From NCBI GenBank assembly GCA_028688015.1, contig JAQTZB010000012.1, positions 11,268 through 75,267 of the forward strand: 64,000 nucleotides of DNA. The letters are read 5' to 3'. Positions 8,263-17,059 of the stretch are shown here, in pieces; position 1 is the first letter of the stretch, and each line of letters starts with the position of its first letter. The notes below the pieces were generated by a model. That model had not been told where the DNA came from. It did no database searches and saw nothing but the letters and a program-made list of their open reading frames with translations. The position numbers were made by a program, and so were the translations under genes. This DNA comes from Elusimicrobiales bacterium (GTDB taxonomy: Bacteria; Elusimicrobiota; Elusimicrobia; Elusimicrobiales; UBA9959).

Positions 8263-9453
8263 TTATATGCCGCCCACCTTCTGCGCTATCACATAGCTGC
8301 CGGCCAGCACGGTAAGACTGCCGCTGGTACTGGGCGCCCACTGCAGGGTCACGCTGCCGATAGTGCTGGCCGTTATCCAACCCTGCAGGTAGACATTGTA
8401 GGGGATGGCGCTGCCGATGATAGACGTATTTGACATGGCGGTGGGAGCGGCATCGCAGTCGGTGGTATCGGCCTGCAGGAAGGCCGCACCTGCCGTCTCG
8501 GAGCCGGACTGCACCACCCGGCAGGTCCAGCCGGCCGCCCCGCGTATGGCCGCCTTCCAGTCAGGGGTGGAACTGTTGTTGTTGGAGACCAGCAGCCGGA
8601 ACTCGAAGATCCAGGTCTCCCCGGCCGCCACCGCGAAGGACAGTGCATCGTCGTCCTGCAGGGTAGTGCCGTTTGGCACGTTCTCATCGGCGTCCTTTAC
8701 CACGAACCGCATCGTCGTGGCCGGCGCCCAGGAAGCGTCGCCGCGCAGGAACTGCGTGGTGGAGCCGGAAGCCTTGGGGGTCAGCCCGTGACGCAATGTG
8801 GAAACATTGGCCGCCGTCACATCGGAAAGATCCAGCGCTCCCTCGTAAACAGCTCCCGCGGCCACCGATGAGACAATGACATTGGCCCCGAGGCTCCCGG
8901 CAGTGGCCAGCTTGCTTATAGCTATGGCCGCGGCGGGGGCAATATCGGCGTCGCTTATTATACCGTCCACTATTTGGTTACCGTTGTTTATCGCTCCCAC
9001 CGCCACGGAAGAGATCCTGAGCAGGACGGAGCCGTCATTGTCCGTCAGCGCGTCGGCGACCGAGGATTTGAAGCTGTAAGGCCCGGCGGTCAGCCGCTCG
9101 CGCGGGCTCAGGGTCTCGCCGGCCACGGCTATCTCAAGGTAGCGCGAGTCCGAGGCGAAGACGGCGCCGTCTATGGCCGCCGCCGCCCCAAGTTGCACGG
9201 CGAAGACGCCGTTAGTCACGGTGACGGTCTGGTTCTCCGTCCACAGGCAGGGATTGCCCACGGCGCAGGGCGCCGAGCAGGTGGCGGCCAGCGAGTTGCA
9301 GATCTTGAAGCTCATCAGGAAGTCGCCGTTCCTGGGCAGTTTACTGGAATCCAGCAGCCGGCCCTGGAAATTCACCAGGCCCGGCACGGCAGCGGAAGCG
9401 GAAAGCGCTCCGGCCAGCGACAGCCATAGGGCTAAAGTGGTAATTTTGCTCAT
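8263..9453 (-). CDS. Secreted hypothetical protein. The N-terminal module resembles those of tail-fibre-like or surface-fibre proteins.
   Basis: ORF 8263..9480. I prefer the internal start MSKITTLALWLSLAGALSASAA (signal peptide), which also avoids overlap with the upstream Rrf2 gene. The N-terminal VNFQGRLLDSSKLPRNGDFLMSFKI...YLEIAV...PYSF pattern is recalled from fibre-like proteins. No catalytic motif seen. Confidence 0.55.
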   Translation of the reverse strand: MSKITTLALWLSLAGALSASAAVPGLVNFQGRLLDSSKLPRNGDFLMSFKICNSLAATCSAPCAVGNPCLWTENQTVTVTNGVFAVQLGAAAAIDGAVFASDSRYLEIAVAGETLSPRERLTAGPYSFKSSVADALTDNDGSVLLRISSVAVGAINNGNQIVDGIISDADIAPAAAIAISKLATAGSLGANVIVSSVAAGAVYEGALDLSDVTAANVSTLRHGLTPKASGSTTQFLRGDASWAPATTMRFVVKDADENVPNGTTLQDDDALSFAVAAGETWIFEFRLLVSNNNSSTPDWKAAIRGAAGWTCRVVQSGSETAGAAFLQADTTDCDAAPTAMSNTSIIGSAIPYNVYLQGWITASTIGSVTLQWAPSTSGSLTVLAGSYVIAQKVGGI

Positions 9454-9463
9454 AATCTTTCTC

Positions 9464-9925
9464 CTATTCCTCGTCCGCACCGCCGCCGGCCGCGCCTGCC
9501 TGCGGAGCCTCGCCTTTGATCCTGCGCGTCTTCTCGTCTTTCTGCCGCTCTTCTTCCTTCATCATCTCCACGATATCCTGCACGGTGAGCCCCACCAGCC
9601 AGTGGTTGACCTCTTCGCGCAGTTTCTTGTAAAGCTTGCCGGGAACCTCCTCGCGCCCCCCCTCCGGGGCGTGGTTAAAAGTGAAAGCCTCCATGAGGCC
9701 CCAAACGCTGATATCGTCGAGGTCCCTGGCCAAGCGGTAGCCCTTGCCCTTCTGCGACTCCACGAAACCGGCGTGCACCAGCGCCTGCAGCACCTTGTTG
9801 CAGTACGGCGCTGGCAGGCCCTGGAAGCGGGCTATCTCCGCCACCTGGTTCCAGCGGCCTCCGTTGTTGGCCCCGAGGTAATGCAGGCAGGCGAGGCCGT
9901 AGGCTAACGTGCGGTTCATCCTCAT
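9464..9925 (-). CDS. Rrf2 family transcriptional regulator with an acidic/basic low-complexity tail.
   Basis: N-terminal winged-helix pattern typical of Rrf2/BadM: TLAYGLACLHYLGAN...QVAEIARFQGLPAPYCNKVLQALVHAGFVESQKGKGYRLA. There is no three-Cys cluster, so it is probably not an Fe-S type. Confidence 0.7.
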   Translation of the reverse strand: MRMNRTLAYGLACLHYLGANNGGRWNQVAEIARFQGLPAPYCNKVLQALVHAGFVESQKGKGYRLARDLDDISVWGLMEAFTFNHAPEGGREEVPGKLYKKLREEVNHWLVGLTVQDIVEMMKEEERQKDEKTRRIKGEAPQAGAAGGGADEE

Positions 9926-10007
9926 AAAAATCCCGAGTCGACTTACACAGCGCGCTGATCTTTCAGGTGACCAGCCGCCATTGGATACAACTTATCCGAT
10001 GACGGCA

Positions 10008-10041
10008 CAAAAAAATAGACGGCAGTATAAGACCCCGCTGT
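10008..10041 (-). terminator. Possible intrinsic terminator after the radical SAM gene.
   Basis: The minus strand reads gacagcgg-loop-ctgccgtc (imperfect stem, one mismatch and one G-U) followed by tattttttt. Confidence 0.35.
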
Positions 10042-10086
10042 CCATTGATATTAATAGTATAGCAGACCAATAACCGCAGTCAAGGC

Positions 10087-11127
10087 CTAAGCCTTTGATT
10101 TTGAATACACGGCGTGCTGAGCCCCGGCGAGGGCGCAGGCGGGAGCGTTCGGGGCCAGGACATTTCCCTCTTCCAGCAGGCTGATGCCGGGGCAGCGGCT
10201 GCACCAGGCGGCGTCCGCGCAGCCGGCGCAGCCGGCCAGGTCCGCCACAGTCAAGGACCGCCAGCGCTTCAGCCAGGGTGCGCTTTTCCAAAGCCCGGAG
10301 AAACTCCGGCGGGTTAAATTACCGAGCCTGACCGGCAGTTGCAGGCAAGGATACAGGTTGCCGGCCGGGTCCACGGCGCAGACATTTCGGCCGGCGCCGC
10401 AAATGAAATCTCCGGGGCCGGGCGGCAGGGGGGCCGCGGCCGGGGCCGGGCCGGCTATCAGTTTTACGGCCTTGCCTAGGGCGGCGCTGGACAGGCGCAG
10501 CGGCAGGGCGGCCCGGCCGCCGTCGTTGGCCGGGGCGATCACCGGGTCAAAAGAGAGACCGAAACCTTCTTTCTTCGCAAGCTCTTTCAACCAGCCTGCG
10601 TGCCCCGCGTTGGCGGTCATCAGCGGGACTTTCATCTTCACTTTTACCCCGGCGCCCGCCAGCAACCGGGCGGCGGCCAAACTGCGCGAGAAGGAGCCGC
10701 GCAGGCCGGTCACCCCGTCGTGGACGGAGGGCCCGCCGTAAAAACTTATTTCGAAGCCGGAAACTCCCGCGGCGGAGAGCTCGCGCGCCAGCCCGCGGGT
10801 GAGGCCCAGGCCCGTGGAAAAGATCCTCACGTCGAAATTGAGCGCCCTGGCCCGGCGGCACAGGTCGGCCAGGTCGGGCCTCAGCAGCGGCTCGCCGCCG
10901 GTGAAGACCAGGTACAACCCGCCGGCGCGGGCCAATTTATCAAGTATTTTCCCCCACCCGGCGGCGGACAGCTCCCTGCCGGGCCGGGCGCGGCCGAGCG
11001 TCTCGGGCAGGTAGCAATGGCGGCAGGACAGCGGGCAGCGGCGGGTCAGTTCTATGGTGACGGAAACCGGGATGTTCTTTTCGACGGTAACGGCGTTAAG
11101 CCGCGCGGAGGGCGTGCAGTCAGGCAT
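10087..11127 (-). CDS. Radical SAM / SPASM-domain peptide-modifying enzyme.
   Basis: CPLSCRHC (CX3CX2C) near the N-terminus and FTGGEPLL SAM-binding motif. The C-terminal auxiliary-cluster Cys motifs CGAGRNVCAVDPAGNLYPC and CAGCADAAWCSRC are SPASM-like. Confidence 0.85.
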   Translation of the reverse strand: MPDCTPSARLNAVTVEKNIPVSVTIELTRRCPLSCRHCYLPETLGRARPGRELSAAGWGKILDKLARAGGLYLVFTGGEPLLRPDLADLCRRARALNFDVRIFSTGLGLTRGLARELSAAGVSGFEISFYGGPSVHDGVTGLRGSFSRSLAAARLLAGAGVKVKMKVPLMTANAGHAGWLKELAKKEGFGLSFDPVIAPANDGGRAALPLRLSSAALGKAVKLIAGPAPAAAPLPPGPGDFICGAGRNVCAVDPAGNLYPCLQLPVRLGNLTRRSFSGLWKSAPWLKRWRSLTVADLAGCAGCADAAWCSRCPGISLLEEGNVLAPNAPACALAGAQHAVYSKSKA

Positions 11128-11437
11128 TGAGGAAAGAGGCGAACCGGCGGCGCAGGGTAGAATAGACCCGCCCGGGCAGGCCGCGGGAGAGGGGCCCTCC
11201 CAGCGCGCGGCCCCTGATATCTGCCCAAGGCACCAAATGCGGTTCCAGCCGGCCTGCGTCGTCGGCCAGCCAGGCCCCGTCGGCCGAGGTTTTTATTACG
11301 CGGTGCAGCAGGGTGCGGCCCCGGTAAGAGTAGACCGCGCAATCTCCGGGCCGGAGCTTGCCGGGGCGCGCCAGCGCAAGTTCCCCGGGCTTGAAGACCG
11401 GGAGCATGCTGGAGCCCTCCAACCTGAAAGCCTTCAT
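11120..11437 (-). CDS. Small soluble S24/S26-type (LexA / signal peptidase I-like) serine peptidase.
   Basis: GSSMLP Ser motif at residues 8-13 and a candidate general-base Lys in LLHRVIK. 105 aa with no hydrophobic anchor. It starts 2 nt after the small peptide ORF stop and overlaps the rSAM start by 8 nt. Confidence 0.6.
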   Translation of the reverse strand: MKAFRLEGSSMLPVFKPGELALARPGKLRPGDCAVYSYRGRTLLHRVIKTSADGAWLADDAGRLEPHLVPWADIRGRALGGPLSRGLPGRVYSTLRRRFASFLNA

Positions 11438-11439
11438 GC

Positions 11440-11583
11440 TCAGGAAAACTTCTTAAGGGTCTTGCAGGCCAGCTGGCTGATGGGGCCCGTAATGCATTTG
11501 CCGCAGGCCAGCGCGGCGGTCTCAAAGACCTTCTCCGTCTTCATCTTCGGTTTCTCGTAGGTTTTTTTCTTTTTTTCGGTCAT
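11440..11583 (-). CDS. Unlisted 47-aa ORF; candidate RiPP precursor peptide.
   Basis: Hand translation: MTEKKKKTYEKPKMKTEKVFETAALACGKCITGPISQLACKTLKKFS*. Its ATG overlaps the PqqD TGA (ATGA). GAGG lies 7 nt upstream. It has a Lys-rich leader-like half and a three-Cys C-terminal half. It is below the ORF-track length cutoff. Confidence 0.55.
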   Translation of the reverse strand: MTEKKKKTYEKPKMKTEKVFETAALACGKCITGPISQLACKTLKKFS

Positions 11584-11846
11584 TTTGTCGCCTCGATAAG
11601 CCCCGCGGCCATTAATTCCTTAACAAAGCCGTTCAGGTCCGCCCTGGCGGTCTTTTCGTTGACTTCGTATTCGGCTGTCAGCGCCGAAAGCAGGCCCCGC
11701 TCTCCGTCCCCGCGGACCAGGCCCTCCCAGATGACGGAGGCCGGGCCGTTGAGTTCCCGCATTTCGGAGCGGGCCGCGTCCACTATGTAGACCTCGCCGG
11801 CTATGCGCCGGAAAGCGAGGCCTTTCTTGATCTTGTATGGCATCAA
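11580..11846 (-). CDS. PqqD family protein (RiPP recognition element-like peptide chaperone).
   Basis: 88 aa. The ...YIVDAARSEMRELNGPASVIWEGL...LLSALTAEYEVNEKTARADLNGFVKELMAAGLI pattern is typical of PqqD. 4-nt overlap with the upstream kinase-like gene. Confidence 0.8.
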   Translation of the reverse strand: MMPYKIKKGLAFRRIAGEVYIVDAARSEMRELNGPASVIWEGLVRGDGERGLLSALTAEYEVNEKTARADLNGFVKELMAAGLIEATK

Positions 11847-12661
11847 ATGAGCTCCAGGAAACCGCAGTCCGCTTTGGAAAACTCCAGGCGCCTGAATTCG
11901 GCTCGCGCCAACAACGCCGCCCCGTTCCCCAGCGCCAGCGCCGCAGCCGCCGGCGACCTTTCGAAATTTACCGCGCAGCGCAGCAGCAACCGCAGGGCTT
12001 CACCCCGGCCGCACGACGCCGTCGCGTTACAGCGCGCCTTGGCCAGCAGAAAGATACCGCCCAGCGGCCAGGAACCGGGGCGCCCGTCCGCGCGCATCTC
12101 CCCCCAGAAAGGGGAGCCGTGCACCCGGTAGCCGCCCTTGCCGGGCAGGACCAGATTTATCTCGTCGCTGATCACTTCGCAGCCGGCGGCCGCGCCCAGC
12201 CGGGAAATGGTGGACTTGCCAGCCCCGGACTTACCCAAGAACAAGCAGGCCCGCCCGTTCTTCAGCAGCCCGGCGGAATGCAGCATAAAACCACCTGACC
12301 GCAGGAGTTGGAAACTTATGAAAGAGCGCAGAAAGGCGTCCAGGGTTTGCTCGCTCGGGGCCGCCACCAGCTCCCCGCGGCCGGTGCGAATGTCCAGGCC
12401 GGCCTGAAAGTCCCCCCGCTCCAGCGTGAGGGCCCGCCCCTCCAGTTTAACAGCCGGCCTGAACGGGTTTTGCAGGCGCGGCCCCCTGACGACGTTAAAA
12501 CTGCAGCCGGTTTTCCCCTTTGCCGCGAAACGGGCGTACCTGCCGCTCAAAATATTAATGATACCCGGCGCATCCGATTTAAAGTACAGGTTTAAACCGG
12601 CAATGGCAAGCCCGTAGGCAGCGGCGCGGCCGGGCGCCTTCAAGGCAGCCATGCCGGCCAT
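11843..12661 (-). CDS. HPr kinase-related P-loop protein (HprK-related kinase family).
   Basis: FMLHSAGLLKNGRACLFLGKSGAGKST matches the HprK C-terminal domain P-loop context. Its start overlaps the stop of the upstream pilin-operon gene. Confidence 0.7.
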   Translation of the reverse strand: MAGMAALKAPGRAAAYGLAIAGLNLYFKSDAPGIINILSGRYARFAAKGKTGCSFNVVRGPRLQNPFRPAVKLEGRALTLERGDFQAGLDIRTGRGELVAAPSEQTLDAFLRSFISFQLLRSGGFMLHSAGLLKNGRACLFLGKSGAGKSTISRLGAAAGCEVISDEINLVLPGKGGYRVHGSPFWGEMRADGRPGSWPLGGIFLLAKARCNATASCGRGEALRLLLRCAVNFERSPAAAALALGNGAALLARAEFRRLEFSKADCGFLELI

Positions 12662-13926
12662 GTCTGCCTGCTATCCAGCCAGGACTGCCGCGTAAGGCGG
12701 ACGTCCGTGGTTAGTATCTGCTTGGCCGCCTCGTCCGTGTAGAAGAAGCAGATATTATTAGAACCGAGCGTTACCGTGCCCACCACGTAGGCCGCTCCCA
12801 CGAATATGCTCTGGCCGGCGCCGCCGCCGGTGGTGATGTTGCCGCCCACGTAGATAAAGCCGTTAGTGATGGCCTTGCCGCTGGTGACGGTCATGGTAAT
12901 GTTCTCGTCCGACCGGTAGCTGTCGTTGATGCCCGGGAAATCATCCGGCAGGCTGGGCGTGGTATCGTTCCAACTCTCCCCGCAGGCCGGCCCGCCGTCC
13001 TTATAATAATCCCAGTCGTTGCCGTACTGCTTCCAGGCGGTGCGCGGCATTTTAATAGTGGGCGACCCCTGGCCGGAGCGGCCGTTGGGAAGGTTCAGGT
13101 TGCCGGTGATGATCAGGTTGCCTCCCACATAAATGCCGTTGGACTTTACGGTGAGGTCCCCTTCTATGAAATAGGTTTTGCCGGTGTTGCATTTGACGGC
13201 GTTGTCGCACTTGGAGCCGGGGCCGCTGCCCCATGTCTGCGAACTGCCGTAATAAGTGCCGTCGAGCGTGGCCGAACTCCTGTAAGCGTCGATATCTATG
13301 CTGGAGGCCTGCGGGATGCCGGGATAATAACTCCACCACTGCACCGAATCCGTATTGGGCGGGGAGGCGCTGGTATCCTTGCCTATGATGGACGAAGCGC
13401 TGTAGAACTGCGGGTGGTTGCGATTGTTGGAATCTATGGAGCCGGGCGCCAGCACGCTGCCCCATTCCACCTGCTCGTTGGAGCCCGAGAGGCTGACGCC
13501 CTGCAGCGACCGGATGGCGTTCTGGCTGATGGCGGCATTAGCGTAAACCACCTTGAGGGCCCTGGCCTCCCGGGACTGCTTGTCCCGCCCGACGGCCAGG
13601 ATGGTAGCCTGTTCCAGGTCCGGGCCGCTGGAGATGGAGATGGTATACGTGCCGCCTGGCAGGTCGCTGTAGACGGCGTCGAAATTAAAACCGGCGAGGG
13701 GCAGGCCGTCTTTAACGGCTTTCCAGGTAGAGGTGGACTCCACCAGCTTCTGGTAGGCCCGGTCCACGGCGCCCTCCGCCAGCTGGAAGGCATTGGAATT
13801 CTGCGCCTGCTTTTCGCTCCATTTCACCTCGTTCTGGATGTACTTCACCATAGCCGGCACCACTATAGCCAGCACCACCAGCATGGCGATAACGCCCAGC
13901 AGCAGCTGCCCTTTCCTGTTCTTCAT
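12640..13926 (-). CDS. PilX-like / pilus-associated protein with an N-terminal membrane anchor and a beta-helix-like C-terminal region.
   Basis: MKNRKGQLLLGVIAMLVVLAIVVPAM... N-terminus resembles the PilX N-terminal domain and has no Glu5. Gly/Asn-rich repeats follow: GGNLIITGNLNLPNG, GGNITTGGGAGQ. Its start shares 1 nt with the upstream pilin's stop codon. Confidence 0.5.
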   Translation of the reverse strand: MKNRKGQLLLGVIAMLVVLAIVVPAMVKYIQNEVKWSEKQAQNSNAFQLAEGAVDRAYQKLVESTSTWKAVKDGLPLAGFNFDAVYSDLPGGTYTISISSGPDLEQATILAVGRDKQSREARALKVVYANAAISQNAIRSLQGVSLSGSNEQVEWGSVLAPGSIDSNNRNHPQFYSASSIIGKDTSASPPNTDSVQWWSYYPGIPQASSIDIDAYRSSATLDGTYYGSSQTWGSGPGSKCDNAVKCNTGKTYFIEGDLTVKSNGIYVGGNLIITGNLNLPNGRSGQGSPTIKMPRTAWKQYGNDWDYYKDGGPACGESWNDTTPSLPDDFPGINDSYRSDENITMTVTSGKAITNGFIYVGGNITTGGGAGQSIFVGAAYVVGTVTLGSNNICFFYTDEAAKQILTTDVRLTRQSWLDSRQTWPAWLP

Positions 13927-14432
13927 CAGTTCATTATCCTCACTTTTTGGATGGAAAGCTGCAGGGCCTTCTTGCCGCCGCGGTAAGTGGGCGACTGCAT
14001 GGTCATGGCTATCGAAATAATGCTGGTGTCGTCGGTCCTGGGGTAGGTGAAGGCGATGTAGGCCAGATTGGAGGACAGCACCCTGACATTTCCGTTATTG
14101 TTCATGTACAAGTCCTTGCCGTTTTGGTAAAAGTACATGACCACGTCTTCGCCGGACGCGTTGACATAGTTGAATTTCAGCCGCGACAGCGGCGGCTGGC
14201 CAGGGGCGTTGTCGATCACGACCGTGGCGGCCTGGGCCTGCCGGGTGAAGCGGTTCATCATGTCCAGCGAGGTGCGGACGTCGCGCTGGATAGCGTAGCG
14301 CGCCGAAGTGAGCCGCCAGAAGTTGGTGATCTGCATCATCATCGGGGCGGCCACCGTTGTCAGGATGCCGAGGATGGCCACCGTGATCATCAGCTCGACG
14401 AGCGTATAGCCACGTTTTTTAGGGCCTACCAT
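13926..14432 (-). CDS. Prepilin-type N-terminal cleavage/methylation domain protein (minor pilin / pseudopilin).
   Basis: MVGPKKRG|YTLVELMITVAILGILTTVAAP shows the class III signal: Gly at -1, Glu at +5, then a hydrophobic helix. Confidence 0.8.
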   Translation of the reverse strand: MVGPKKRGYTLVELMITVAILGILTTVAAPMMMQITNFWRLTSARYAIQRDVRTSLDMMNRFTRQAQAATVVIDNAPGQPPLSRLKFNYVNASGEDVVMYFYQNGKDLYMNNNGNVRVLSSNLAYIAFTYPRTDDTSIISIAMTMQSPTYRGGKKALQLSIQKVRIMN

Positions 14433-16924
14433 GCGAAGTCCCTCGTGGCGGTACCGCCCGCGTTGACATAAACTCCGGTGCTGGTCCTGGAGGTATAGGT
14501 CACCGCGCCGCTGTTGGCGTTGACCACCGGGTAATAGGCCCTCATGTTATAGGGCGTAGTGGTGCTGGACCTGACCTCCAGGCTATATGTACCGTCGGCC
14601 TGGCTGGAAGCGGAATAATAAATGATTTCAGAAGCGGAAGTGGCGGCGGCTATGGACGGCAAAGGGTCGCTGACGGTGCCCGTGCTGGCCACCACCAGCA
14701 CGCCGGTGGTGACGGCAACGCTGCTGGCCACCACGGTGCCGGTAATGGTGCCCAGGGCCCCCACAATGGTTATGGTGCCGGTAAAAACGGTGCTGCCCGG
14801 CACGGCCATGTCGGCCTCCAGGGGCGTGGTCGGCAGGGAAGTATAGCTTTGCAGCGGGTCGAGGACTGGGTTTATGGTATACGCCACCGCGGAGGTAGCC
14901 GCGTAAATATAGAAGTGGCCGGTGCTGTCGCTGGTATCCTCGTAAACCGGCCCGCCGTTGGTGGCCTGCACCACCACGTTAGGAAGGACCCCGGTGCCAG
15001 AGGTGACGTAGCCGGTTAGATACCCACCCTGGGCGATATGGAAATCCGGGACCTGGGTAATACCGCCAAGCGGTATGTCCACTTCCGCGTCTACGCTCTG
15101 GTAGCTGCCGTTGGCAGAGCCATAATTAGCCGTGATGGTCACCAGGCCGGTGCTGAGGAACAGCATGTAAAAACCCTGGCTGTCGGTGTTGGCGGTCACT
15201 CCGCCGGCGCCGACCTTGATGGAAGGATTGCCCAGGGGCCGATACTGGTCCGGGCCGCTGCCGAAAACGTAGCCGGTGGCTATGCCTCCCGGCACGGTGG
15301 TGGAAAGGACCAGGGTGCCGACGTCCTTGTTCTGCCCGGCGGCGATATACAGGCCGGCGCTGGAGTTGAAAACCGTGTAAGAGGCCACAGTCACGGTCCA
15401 GGTGCTGACGGTATTCAGCGCGGCGCAGGTCGCCACGTTGGTGAGGTAGAAGTACCCGGTTGCCGAGACCAGCGCCGACGAGGAAAGCCCGTCGTTAACG
15501 GTGACTATGCCCCCGGCCGCGGGGGTCCCGGTGACGGCGGTCTCCTGGGTGGCGGAGTTTCTGGGCGGGTAGATGACCGAGGACAACACGTAGAAATCCG
15601 TATTATTGTTATTGGCGTCGTAGGCCCGGCCCGAGCCGGAGGCCAGCATGGAGGCGTGGGACTTGCGGATGAACTGCTCGCTGAGCTGCAGGCCCGTGAA
15701 CTGGTCTATGGGTTCCCCTTCGCCGCCGAAAGAGTTGCCGCCGGTTTTCCAGGCCACCTTGTCCAGGGCCTGCGAGAGCGCCAGGTCCACCAGCGACACC
15801 TCGGCGGCGTCGTTGCCGGGATCGGTGTTGATCTTGATGATGTTCGGGAAATTCGGGTTGCTGTTGCTGAAGACCGCGTCGGCGGCGCGCGTGGTGCCGC
15901 CGGCCTCTATGGAGGCCGCGTTGGCGAAAAGATAATAGCGCTGCGGGCCCAGGGTCAGGGTAGCGTAGTCGTTGGTAATGAGCAGGGCGGGCTGGGTGTT
16001 GATCTTATAGCCCAGGCCCACGAGCCCCGAGTTCAGGCCGGTGGCCATGGTCCAGGTCCAGGTAGTGGGATTATAGACCTCTATCCATTCCTGGGAAAAG
16101 CCGGCGACGGTCACGGAGGCGCCCACCACCTGGGAGATGACGAGGTGGTCGCGGATGTAAGCCAGGCCGGAGACGCTGCCGGTGGCTATCTTCATCAGGG
16201 AAAAGTTATAAGTGGTATACGCCCCGGCCGTTACGGAGAGGGTGGGGCTCATGGTGGAATAATAAACGTCGCTGGAGCAGACCAGGGTGTACGTGCCCGG
16301 GGCCACCTGAAAACTGTAATTACCCGAGGCGTCGCTTGTAGCGCGCCACTTGGGCGCCCCCATCACCTGCACCAACGCATCGCCCACTGGCACCGCCGAA
16401 GCGCCGGGTGTGTAGGAGATCTGCCCCCTGAAGCCGGCGTTGAGCATCTCGGTGTTGGGGTTCTCGTAATAGCTGCTGAACTGCACCTTTTTGGGTTCCC
16501 CGCCCTCCGACCACATCACCGTTACCGTTATCCGCTTCATGCCGGGGTCCTCGTCCGTGGGCAGCAGGGGCGTAGGCACCGAACCGTTGAGCGTGATGTA
16601 TTCTACTTTCACCACCCGGGTAAGCGCCGGCATGCCCCAAAGCGTTATGGTCTGCGGGGGATAGGTGGTGGAGTCGTAAGTGAAATTGGGTGAGAAGCCG
16701 CTGCTTGGCAAAGTTTCCGTGGTGACCTGCAACTGATAATAAGACTTGTTCTTGAGCACCTCCATCTTTTCCTGGGCCAGATTGATGGCAATGGTCTTGA
16801 TGCGGGACTGCGTCATAGCCCTGTTGATGAACTTAAAGGCGCCCATACCCCCCACCACACCGACGGTCAGGATCGTGACGGCAATCATCAGTTCTGTAAG
16901 GCTGACGCCTTTTCGTTTTGACAT
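14426..16924 (-). CDS. 832-aa pilin-like fusion: prepilin N-terminus, PilV/GspI-like region, CarboxypepD_reg-like beta-sandwiches and a lamin-tail-like domain.
   Basis: MSKRKG|VSLTELMIAVTILTVG has Gly at -1 and Glu at +5. SGNYSFQVAPGTYTLVCS-type modules are present. The QEWIEVYNPT signature resembles lamin tail domains. The ORF track extends to 17044, so alternative upstream starts are possible. Confidence 0.7.
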   Translation of the reverse strand: MSKRKGVSLTELMIAVTILTVGVVGGMGAFKFINRAMTQSRIKTIAINLAQEKMEVLKNKSYYQLQVTTETLPSSGFSPNFTYDSTTYPPQTITLWGMPALTRVVKVEYITLNGSVPTPLLPTDEDPGMKRITVTVMWSEGGEPKKVQFSSYYENPNTEMLNAGFRGQISYTPGASAVPVGDALVQVMGAPKWRATSDASGNYSFQVAPGTYTLVCSSDVYYSTMSPTLSVTAGAYTTYNFSLMKIATGSVSGLAYIRDHLVISQVVGASVTVAGFSQEWIEVYNPTTWTWTMATGLNSGLVGLGYKINTQPALLITNDYATLTLGPQRYYLFANAASIEAGGTTRAADAVFSNSNPNFPNIIKINTDPGNDAAEVSLVDLALSQALDKVAWKTGGNSFGGEGEPIDQFTGLQLSEQFIRKSHASMLASGSGRAYDANNNNTDFYVLSSVIYPPRNSATQETAVTGTPAAGGIVTVNDGLSSSALVSATGYFYLTNVATCAALNTVSTWTVTVASYTVFNSSAGLYIAAGQNKDVGTLVLSTTVPGGIATGYVFGSGPDQYRPLGNPSIKVGAGGVTANTDSQGFYMLFLSTGLVTITANYGSANGSYQSVDAEVDIPLGGITQVPDFHIAQGGYLTGYVTSGTGVLPNVVVQATNGGPVYEDTSDSTGHFYIYAATSAVAYTINPVLDPLQSYTSLPTTPLEADMAVPGSTVFTGTITIVGALGTITGTVVASSVAVTTGVLVVASTGTVSDPLPSIAAATSASEIIYYSASSQADGTYSLEVRSSTTTPYNMRAYYPVVNANSGAVTYTSRTSTGVYVNAGGTATRDFAW

Positions 16925-17059
16925 GCAGAAGCCAAAAACCGCGGCGCCGCGCGCTGCGGCGCGATCGTTCTTAGTGTTCATTCTTGCGGCGCCCATGCCA
17001 TAGCCTACCAGGCGGCGCGCCAAAAAACCGCAATTCCCCCTCAAATACTCCGCAAATCC

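Follow-up and report, generated by a model that had tools for sequence, protein, structure and literature searches.

A conserved 47-residue peptide gene, probable substrate of a RiPP-type cassette with ScmC-like, PqqD, Sec11-type and radical-SAM/SPASM proteins in Elusimicrobia

The DNA analysed is a 64,000-nucleotide stretch of an Elusimicrobiales genome (assembly GCA_028688015.1, contig JAQTZB010000012.1, positions 11,268 to 75,267), hereafter called the window. On its minus strand lies an open reading frame (ORF) of 47 codons, translated as MTEKKKKTYEKPKMKTEKVFETAALACGKCITGPISQLACKTLKKFS, which an earlier note had called unannotated and had proposed to encode the precursor of a modified peptide. 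Judging from comparisons among related genomes, the ORF is a real, strongly conserved protein-coding gene in exactly this frame and position. Its product is quite likely the substrate in a five-gene cassette of the RiPP type (a peptide made on ribosomes and modified after translation), the other members of which are a ScmC-like P-loop enzyme, a PqqD protein, a Sec11-type peptidase domain and a radical S-adenosylmethionine (SAM) enzyme carrying a SPASM domain. The precursor proposal is well supported by comparative genomics, namely by the position of the gene, its leader motif, its terminal Ser and its partner enzymes. Two features had been overlooked. The peptide belongs to a very large family spanning two phyla, and is far better conserved than the enzymes encoded next to it.

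The gene is tightly packed between its neighbours. The start codon (ATG, 11583-11581) overlaps the stop codon of the PqqD gene (AAATGA), and a GAGG tetramer is found 7 nt upstream. The stop codon (TGA, 11442-11440) is followed by the dinucleotide gc, and then by the ATG (11437) of a 105-aa peptidase-like ORF. Cys residues are found at positions 27, 30 and 40, and Ser47 is the final residue. All these details, including the 2-nt gap, had been correctly given in the earlier note, and refer to the minus strand. The compact layout is itself conserved, the gap to the peptidase gene ranging from -10 to +9 nt in 36 of 43 orthologous loci; a purine-rich, Shine-Dalgarno-like tetramer, loosely defined so as to admit AAGG and GGGA, is present in the 20 nt upstream of the gene in 27 of the 43. 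The arrangement from which translational coupling had been deduced is therefore confirmed, and coupling itself is plausible on the basis of the layout.

A 47-codon ORF is not significant by itself, because short ORFs are abundant in the GC-rich window (64.5% GC; a 16-kb stretch is overlapped by 92 ORFs of 40 aa or more). What distinguishes this ORF is the pattern of its variation. In 40 distinct orthologous DNA sequences, 18 of the 39 columns are variable at the first codon position, 17 at the second and 38 at the third. The ratio of nonsynonymous to synonymous variation (pN/pS) is 0.22 in the peptide frame, versus 1.86 and 1.89 in the two alternative forward frames, which contain 56 and 60 in-frame stops in the same set, versus none in the peptide frame. 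A chance ORF, or conservation due to an RNA or DNA element, might be suspected where short ORFs are so plentiful, but this is refuted by a third-position variability and a low pN/pS confined to the peptide frame, and by homologues numbering in the thousands, all of which have a stop codon of their own right behind the terminal Ser. An Rfam scan of positions 9000-13000 gave no match at E <=1.

Database searches with the peptide retrieved 101 orthologue clusters, 44-68 aa in length and 66-97% identical to the query. Most orthologues are 44-46 aa, mainly 45 aa, long (47 aa in the window) and begin with MKKKK. Those named by organism all come from metagenome-assembled genomes of Elusimicrobia. A minority carries a product name, which is always 'hypothetical protein', and most are unnamed. 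Residues K7, Y9, K11, P12, F20, E21, A23, A24, L25, C27, G28, K29, C30, G33, C40 and S47 are invariant in an alignment of 51 sequences. No second copy of the peptide was found within the window.

Conservation of the position was assessed on 47 loci from GTDB species representatives, all Elusimicrobia, which were fetched by means of the ScmC-like enzyme rather than of the peptide, thus avoiding circularity. A small ORF is found directly upstream of the peptidase-like gene in 36 of the 36 loci having an intact cluster and sufficient downstream DNA. In intact loci the peptide ORF sits between the PqqD and the peptidase-like genes, and where the gene order is rearranged, as in L051 (one of the 36) and in L130, it stays beside the latter. 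The peptide was not matched in 9 of the 47 loci, 7 of which end too early. In the remaining two (L008 and L019) unrelated DNA follows the PqqD or the ScmC gene, close to the contig end; being clusters interrupted by unrelated DNA, they were rejected as counter-examples. The earlier note had named as contrary evidence the lack of a conserved small ORF at this position in related loci, or a conservation of nucleotides inconsistent with the reading frame. What is found is a small ORF kept beside homologous cassettes, under a constraint typical of proteins in this frame only. No other gene of the Elusimicrobia block is as well conserved as that of the peptide, the median identity of which to the window copy in 29 loci is 86%, versus 58% for ScmC, 54% for PqqD, 63% for the peptidase, 63% for the radical-SAM enzyme and 79% for a downstream Rrf2-family regulator.

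The family is much larger than the set of close orthologues. A profile of the Elusimicrobia peptides, run against 1.84 billion representatives with no word index (E <=1e-3), identified 484 clusters at 50% identity. Most of them are peptides of approximately 60 aa, hereafter called type 2, with the consensus ...KKPYxKPxFRxERVFETxALxCGK(V/I)xxTQxxCxxNRKxS. Searches with the type-2 alignment gave at least 7,033 significant clusters at 90% identity among 8,000 candidates scored, and those with a name are all 'hypothetical protein'. The architecture was evaluated on 150 listed family representatives at 50% identity. The sequence ends in Ser in 148 of the 150 and in Thr in the other 2; counted over 370 family members, 368 end in Ser. 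In 132 of 145 representatives exactly 7 residues separate the position of the last Cys from the C-terminus, and the Tyr of the YxxP motif is 18 residues before the Cys of the CGK motif in 134 of 143. In 144 representatives, the frequencies of Tyr and Pro in the leader motif are 0.95 and 0.96, and the hydrophobic position is filled by F, V, I or L. The CGK Cys is followed by Gly (0.95) and Lys (1.00), and preceded by Ala at -3 (0.90), Leu at -2 (0.97) and Ala, Ser, Thr, Val or Gly at -1 (0.95). The family core pattern thus reads as a YxKPxΦ leader, ExxFETxAL-[small]-CGK, a second Cys 7 residues from the end, and a C-terminal Ser.

These data modify the view of the peptide as a three-Cys substrate. 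C27 and C40 are universal, whereas C30 is confined to a subgroup (54 of 146 listed representatives). Because C30 is clade-specific, the CxxC spacing, the conservation of which was to be checked along with that of the near universal terminal Ser, is not the defining feature; C-G-K plus the Cys 7 residues from the C-terminus are. The notion that the charged N-terminal half is leader-like has gained weight, since it contains the conserved Y-x-K-P-x-hydrophobic motif, which matches the YxxPxL motif of lasso peptide leaders bound by a RiPP precursor recognition element (RRE). The Lys/Glu-rich N-terminus of the window peptide lacks hydrophobic stretches, and no hydrophobic signal sequence is present. 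One family member (P0356, 151 aa) is a natural fusion of a PqqD domain to a type-2 peptide; an AlphaFold2 (AF2) model of the fusion, made without alignment for leader docking on the RRE, has a predicted local distance difference test (pLDDT) score of 43.5, too low for interpretation. In another (P0284, 106 aa) the leader is duplicated (two KRPYVKPxFR segments) and the core is single. Pfam and NCBIfam scans of the peptide and 13 relatives, at E values up to 10 or 1, assigned no family and gave only a chance InvH match. The peptide family is undescribed in the searchable literature, a search that leaves out most subscription journals, and may have been described elsewhere.

The genes accompanying the peptide are recurrent. 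The peptide is always accompanied by PqqD, and nearly always by the Sec11-type peptidase, the kinase-like P-loop enzyme and the SPASM radical-SAM enzyme, with exceptions reported below. The PqqD protein has lasso PqqD models as best NCBIfam matches, below cutoff. The ScmC-like protein scores 41.5 bits versus a 125-bit ScmC equivalog cutoff (54.7 and 41.9 bits for the Acidobacterial homologues), and the Pfam ScmC domain (PF27840) is recorded on its orthologues. Its AF2 model (pLDDT 89.5) is matched by Foldseek to ATP-dependent phosphoenolpyruvate carboxykinase (PEPCK, E ~5e-7) and to HPr kinase/phosphorylase (HprK/P, E ~4e-3), two enzymes sharing one P-loop fold superfamily. PDB sequence searches with the ScmC-like profile retrieved only generic P-loop matches and PEPCK. 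The motif H128-G143-G146-G148-K149-S150-D166-E167 is conserved, and all its residues except S150 are at least 90% conserved across both phyla. The catalytic motif of the lasso kinase BsfK is H148-G163-G166-G168-K169-S170-D186-D187 (PMC10368454). Spacing is identical in the two motifs, with a constant 20-residue offset, and the sole change is from Asp to Glu at the final position.

The gene downstream of the peptide, labelled simply as a peptidase in the earlier note, can be more precisely described as encoding a Sec11/archaeal-type signal-peptidase domain with a Ser-His-Asp triad and no membrane anchor. Only 9 residues precede the catalytic Ser in the window protein, too few to accommodate an anchor. 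Residues G8, S10, M11, P13, H45, R46 and D60 are conserved in 93 homologues. A search of PDB with the single 105-aa sequence retrieved nothing, and a profile was needed: one built on 13 homologues matches human SEC11C (E 7e-9) and SEC11A (E 1e-8), with Ser (SMxP), His (HRV) and Asp (GD) aligned. The NCBIfam model sigpep_I_arch matches the 105-aa protein at 1e-4. In the radical-SAM enzyme, the CX3CX2C motif (C31/C35/C38) and the SPASM Cys residues 243, 261, 300, 303, 309, 312 and 331 are conserved (59 homologues). Among proteins of solved structure, the thioether synthase SkfB (8e-17) comes closest to the enzyme, followed by PqqE (1.6e-13). Some members of one 90% cluster of the enzyme (L055 9935-11032) are named 'AdoMet-dependent heme synthase' in JGI/IMG, a name which is probably a mis-annotation, given the RiPP-type context and the sub-threshold AhbD scores.

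Cassettes of Acidobacteriota have a different order, i.e. peptide, S24/S26 peptidase, ScmC (PF27840), PqqD and radical-SAM/SPASM, found, among others, in a genome of 5.0 Mb and a contig of 2.0 Mb. For one genome, the assignment to Acidobacteriota/Terriglobales was based on the identity of a cold-shock protein and on the name Terriglobales borne by a radical-SAM cluster. The 72 informative loci from soil and peat metagenomes comprise 25 full cassettes, 22 short contigs in which the peptidase gene comes right after the peptide, 3 partial cassettes and 22 'orphan' peptides; the cassette begins right after the peptide in 47 of the 72. Cassette proteins of Acidobacteria are only 34-36% identical to those of the window.

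On these grounds a maturation route may be outlined. The peptide would be translated in a coupled fashion with PqqD on the 5' side and with the peptidase gene on the 3' side, as the layout suggests. By analogy to lasso B1 proteins, PqqD would bind the leader via Y9-x-K-P12-x-M14, and present the peptide to the enzymes. The YxxPxL motif in lasso leaders is bound by PqqD-type B1 RREs (PMC10368454). The radical-SAM/SPASM enzyme would modify the core, most probably at C27 and/or C40, plausibly forming a thioether or a similar cross-link. The ScmC-like P-loop enzyme would use ATP to phosphorylate the C-terminal Ser47, a step proposed because the catalytic motif of lasso kinases is shared and the terminal Ser is near universal. 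Lasso HPr-kinase homologues phosphorylate the C-terminal Ser of the precursor, and the RRE speeds up the reaction (PMC8498205, PMC10368454). Finally, the soluble Sec11-type peptidase would cut after A24-L25-A26, a site suggested by the -3/-1 rule, releasing a basic peptide of about 21 residues that starts with Cys27. The assignment as substrate is held with good confidence; a C-terminal phospho-serine has, in our view, an even chance of being correct, and thioether formation in the core is conceivable but somewhat doubtful.

Several points speak against the route, or against parts of it. Each of the four steps, namely binding, cross-linking, phosphorylation and cleavage, is inferred. As the radical-SAM enzyme is above the NCBIfam cutoff of no characterised family, its chemistry can be assigned only tentatively. 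A cut at T-x-A|L would fit the -3/-1 rule equally well. Lasso kinases are not always directed to the C-terminal Ser, since BsfK targets Ser3 (PMC10368454), and the final residue of the kinase motif in the ScmC-like protein is Glu, not Asp. As to the genomic distribution, approximately 30% of the peptide copies of Acidobacteria are orphans distant from any cassette, and two Elusimicrobia loci (L041 and L046) have no radical-SAM gene after the peptidase gene. These two loci (L041 7179-9623; L046 after 6844) are divergent, and their peptide retains all three Cys. In L041, the peptidase gene is followed by genes for a 299-aa protein with multiple hydrophobic segments (EamA/DMT-like by eye) and a 400-aa protein with a signal peptide (PLD-like by eye).

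Table 1. Features of the peptide gene and of its neighbourhood. Positions refer to the window, unless a locus of another genome is named.
Feature	Position	Strand	Remarks
Three pilin-like genes (872 aa, N_methyl + CarboxypepD_reg; 168 aa, prepilin-type; 428 aa)	12640..17044	minus	ORFs overlap or abut the cassette
ScmC-like/HprK-like P-loop phosphotransferase, 272 aa	11843..12661	minus	NCBIfam ScmC 1e-10
PqqD-family peptide chaperone (RRE), 88 aa	11580..11846	minus	Pfam PqqD 2.3e-12
GAGG, Shine-Dalgarno-like	11591..11594	minus	7 nt 5' of the peptide ATG
Peptide gene, 47 aa	11440..11583	minus	Predicted leader + core; orthologue, codon-pattern and synteny evidence
Leader motif Y9-E-K-P12-K-M14 (YxKPxΦ)	11542..11559	minus	Predicted PqqD/RRE binding site
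A24-L25-A26, AxA-type, directly before C27	11506..11514	minus	Predicted leader cleavage site; cut position inferred
Predicted 21-aa core, CGKCITGPISQLACKTLKKFS	11443..11505	minus	C27-G28-K29, C40 and S47 universal; C30 clade-specific
Sec11/archaeal-type (S26B-like) Ser-His-Asp signal-peptidase domain, anchorless, 105 aa	11120..11437	minus	Predicted leader peptidase
Radical-SAM/SPASM enzyme, 346 aa	10087..11127	minus	Pfam Radical_SAM 1.8e-20, SPASM 4.5e-7
Rrf2-family regulator	9464..9925	minus	Pfam Rrf2 6e-19; after the radical-SAM gene in nearly all Elusimicrobia loci
SEC610 members	L053 2533-5889, 6045-7958, 13155-15188; L056 10325-12103; L092 7339-9171
SEC610 members, further	L095 4398-6224; L100 7238-9211; L085 6880-8751

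In the window, the minus strand carries in this order the three pilin-like genes, the ScmC-like, PqqD and peptide genes, the 105-aa ORF, the radical-SAM/SPASM gene and the Rrf2 gene. The genes from the pilins to the radical-SAM enzyme overlap or abut, and no terminator-like site is present between them; the gap between the radical-SAM and Rrf2 genes is 161 nt, and contains a promoter-like site. The pilin-like trio precedes the cassette in Elusimicrobia loci throughout, with synteny kept and ORFs overlapping. Neither exporter or transporter genes nor immunity genes are part of the conserved Elusimicrobia block.

Acidobacteria loci have neighbours of their own. A protein family here called SEC610, with members of approximately 610 aa (up to 1,118 aa), is characterized by a signal peptide, an N-terminal G-x-P-x-D-W-S/T motif and several conserved Cys, and has no Pfam match. 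SEC610 genes are present in 30 of 83 loci, and are located directly downstream of at least 14 of the 22 orphan peptide copies. The strict motif DW[ST]HH was found in two loci only, and no SEC610 relative was detected in the window or in Elusimicrobia loci at E <=1. In one Acidobacteria lineage, the orphan peptide comes directly after a PilW-like gene and a gene for a 1,161-aa protein containing PilX_N (L098 2064-6833, L134 3308-6796), and such neighbours may point to a link of the peptide to minor pilins of type IV filaments. Genes for an ATP-binding cassette (ABC) ATPase and an ABC-2 permease are found upstream of the peptide or the cassette in about 20 loci, 7 of which also carry a divergent PF14907 nucleotidyltransferase (examples are L057 1303-2553, L126 2483-3283, L061 246-1043 and L053 from 15194). 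ABC and nucleotidyltransferase genes together make up the accessory set known for phosphoglycosylated lasso peptides. A PMT_2 glycosyltransferase gene follows the radical-SAM gene in two loci.

Such neighbours raise the question of what the mature peptide is for. One alternative, of lower probability, is that it is matured as proposed but, rather than being a free bioactive product, serves large proteins of the surface or the secretome as a dedicated small partner, a subunit or a prosthetic peptide. A precedent is QhpC, the cross-linked gamma subunit of quinohemoprotein amine dehydrogenase (QHNDH), the production of which involves a radical-SAM/SPASM enzyme, trimming by a protease and export through an ABC transporter. 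The SEC610 genes in Acidobacteria, particularly those next to orphan peptides, the ABC ATPase and permease genes, the minor-pilin genes preceding the orphan peptide in two loci, and the pilin-like trio that always overlaps the Elusimicrobia cassette are all compatible with this hypothesis, and a very high conservation would suit a peptide bound to a fixed protein partner. The argument is, in turn, purely one of guilt by association. Neither the window nor any of the Elusimicrobia loci contains SEC610, a single lineage provides the pilin link in Acidobacteria, and the partner would need to differ by lineage. A broader scenario can be drawn, according to which the family is the missing substrate class of all orphan ScmC-type HprK-like/PqqD/SPASM cassettes, and the product is no antibiotic, but a cross-linked and C-terminally phosphorylated, possibly phosphoglycosylated, partner or prosthetic subunit of surface or secreted proteins; these would be the pilin-like ones in Elusimicrobia and, in Acidobacteria, the uncharacterised secreted family of ~610 aa. 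Taken as a whole, this scenario is rather unlikely. Were it true, the RiPPs would gain a further class, and the leader peptidase of this class, a soluble signal-peptidase domain of the Sec11 type, would also be of a new kind.

The possibility that the peptide is the precursor of a secreted antimicrobial RiPP, similar to sactipeptide or ranthipeptide bacteriocins, is improbable. The thioether synthase SkfB is the nearest solved relative of the radical-SAM enzyme, the core is basic and contains Cys, and ABC-2 transporters are encoded beside many Acidobacteria cassettes. Yet the cores of typical bacteriocins are hypervariable, whereas this peptide has a median identity to the window copy of 86%, versus 54-63% for the enzymes, and its architecture is fixed in two phyla. 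Because the peptide is the most conserved gene, and the Elusimicrobia cassette includes neither an exporter nor an immunity gene, it seems more likely that the product serves a conserved physiological role, and is not a fast-evolving antibiotic.

Still less probable is that the gene encodes a small conserved protein which is not a substrate, such as a regulator, a chaperone or a metal-binding adaptor, the true substrate being encoded elsewhere. This would account for the high conservation of the whole length, including the putative leader, for the orphan copies with no enzymes nearby and for the two loci missing the adjacent radical-SAM gene. It would leave aside that the peptide is always accompanied by a PqqD/RRE protein and carries a YxxPxΦ motif like that of known RRE ligands (PMC10368454), that an AxA site adjoins the core while a signal-peptidase-type domain is encoded next door, and that an invariant terminal Ser is found beside a kinase-like enzyme. 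The cassette offers no other conserved small ORF as a candidate. The assignment of the peptide as substrate is thus preferred.

A few observations on the surroundings of Elusimicrobia cassettes may be added. Insertions of 1.1-3 kb interrupt some of them at the junction between peptidase and radical-SAM genes or between ScmC and PqqD genes (L048 7455-8867, L049 7508-9026, L010 6804-7970, L035 5701-8774). Downstream of Rrf2, Elusimicrobia loci carry either of two genes. One, at 8263-9480 of the window (minus strand), encodes a 405-aa protein with a signal peptide and a weak match to the N-domain of the Bdellovibrio mosaic adhesive trimer. The other, found in L001 and L004 from ~10216-10270, encodes a giant protein (~4,500 aa) in which fn3, LTD and beta-propeller domains are plentiful.

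The peptide provides a concrete candidate substrate for the ScmC-type kinase-like/PqqD/radical-SAM/SPASM set, which has until now been modelled in family libraries via enzymes alone. Members of the family abound in Acidobacteria of soil and in Elusimicrobia of groundwater, both little-studied phyla, and the rigid architecture of the family (YxKPxΦ, AL-small-CGK, Cys-x6-Ser-COOH) predicts specific sites of modification. If correct, the proposed route would introduce two novelties in RiPP biosynthesis, a soluble leader peptidase of the Sec11 type and a lasso-type kinase module joined with a radical-SAM enzyme. The unusual conservation of the peptide points to a physiological role, as a cofactor, a signal or a protein partner, rather than to chemical warfare.

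Each module of the cassette resembles part of a known system. The peptidase domain has the catalytic residues of endoplasmic reticulum (ER) and archaeal signal peptidases I (Sec11, SipW, archaeal SPase; MEROPS S26B), namely Ser (GxSMxP), His (HR) and Asp (GD), and an AxA-type site is found in its putative substrate. It differs in lacking a membrane anchor and in facing a substrate with no hydrophobic signal sequence, and would act as a cytoplasmic leader peptidase. We know of no case of a signal-peptidase-type domain serving as RiPP leader peptidase. The pathways for pyrroloquinoline quinone (PQQ; PqqA/D/E), mycofactocin (MftA/B/C/E) and QHNDH (QhpC/D/E/F) similarly combine a stand-alone PqqD-type chaperone, a SPASM enzyme, a peptidase and a short, highly conserved peptide with critical C-terminal residues; a further parallel is that the present peptide is better conserved than its enzymes. 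The best NCBIfam matches of the radical-SAM enzyme include PqqE and MftC, and all scores are below equivalog cutoffs. In contrast to those pathways, the cassette has a kinase-like enzyme and a peptide of unrelated sequence, which ends in Ser instead of Tyr or Glu...Tyr. A SPASM maturase with a complete SPASM domain, a short Cys-containing precursor and an RRE are shared with sactipeptide and ranthipeptide systems (SkfB, AlbA, CteB/SCIFF, PapB). Differences are that the RRE is here a separate protein, that two Cys only are universal, that the set includes a kinase-like enzyme and a putative leader peptidase of the S26 type, and that no curated maturase cutoff is reached.

A close parallel for the kinase is the kinase/RRE module that tailors phosphorylated lasso peptides (paeninodin PadeK, BsfK/BsfB1, pseudomycoidin PsmK/PsmN), in which the HprK-like kinase motif has the same spacing (PMC8498205, PMC10368454). 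The likeness extends to the discrete PqqD-type RRE, the Y-x-x-P-x-hydrophobic leader and a precursor ending in Ser and, in Acidobacteria loci, to an NTP_transf_5 nucleotidyltransferase and an ABC transporter. Other hallmarks of lasso peptide clusters are missing. The core, devoid of acidic residues, lacks the Asp or Glu at positions 7-9 needed for the macrolactam; domains of the lasso cyclase (Asn-synthetase-like) or of the B2 transglutaminase-like protease were not found among the ORFs at 8263-17044 or the called genes of related loci; and the cassette contains instead a radical-SAM/SPASM enzyme and a Sec11-type peptidase.

The combination of a ScmC-type HprK-like protein with PqqD and radical-SAM/SPASM proteins recalls the SynChlorMet (SCM), GeoRSP and HPr-rel-A systems (TIGR04248-04251, TIGR04302/04303, TIGR04352/04353/04355). 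The window radical-SAM enzyme scores 81.9 bits with ScmE and 54.6 bits with ScmF, each versus a cutoff of 400, and the corresponding values for the other systems are 16.6 versus 100 (geo_PqqD), 92.9 versus 400 (GeoRSP_rSAM), and 30.2 and 23.6 versus 200 (HprK_rel_A and HprK_rel_B). None of the window or Acidobacterial cassette proteins scanned reached the curated cutoffs of SCM, GeoRSP or HPr-rel-A. Unlike SCM, which has two radical-SAM genes (ScmE and ScmF), the cassette has one, and includes a signal-peptidase-type gene and an identifiable precursor; to our knowledge, the SCM family descriptions state the precursor as unknown. The cassette is related to the systems recognized in silico by Haft, but falls outside their curated thresholds. 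A plausible reading of all these comparisons is that a RiPP-type pathway has combined modules known separately, with a precursor family and a set of enzymes that would be new in their association.

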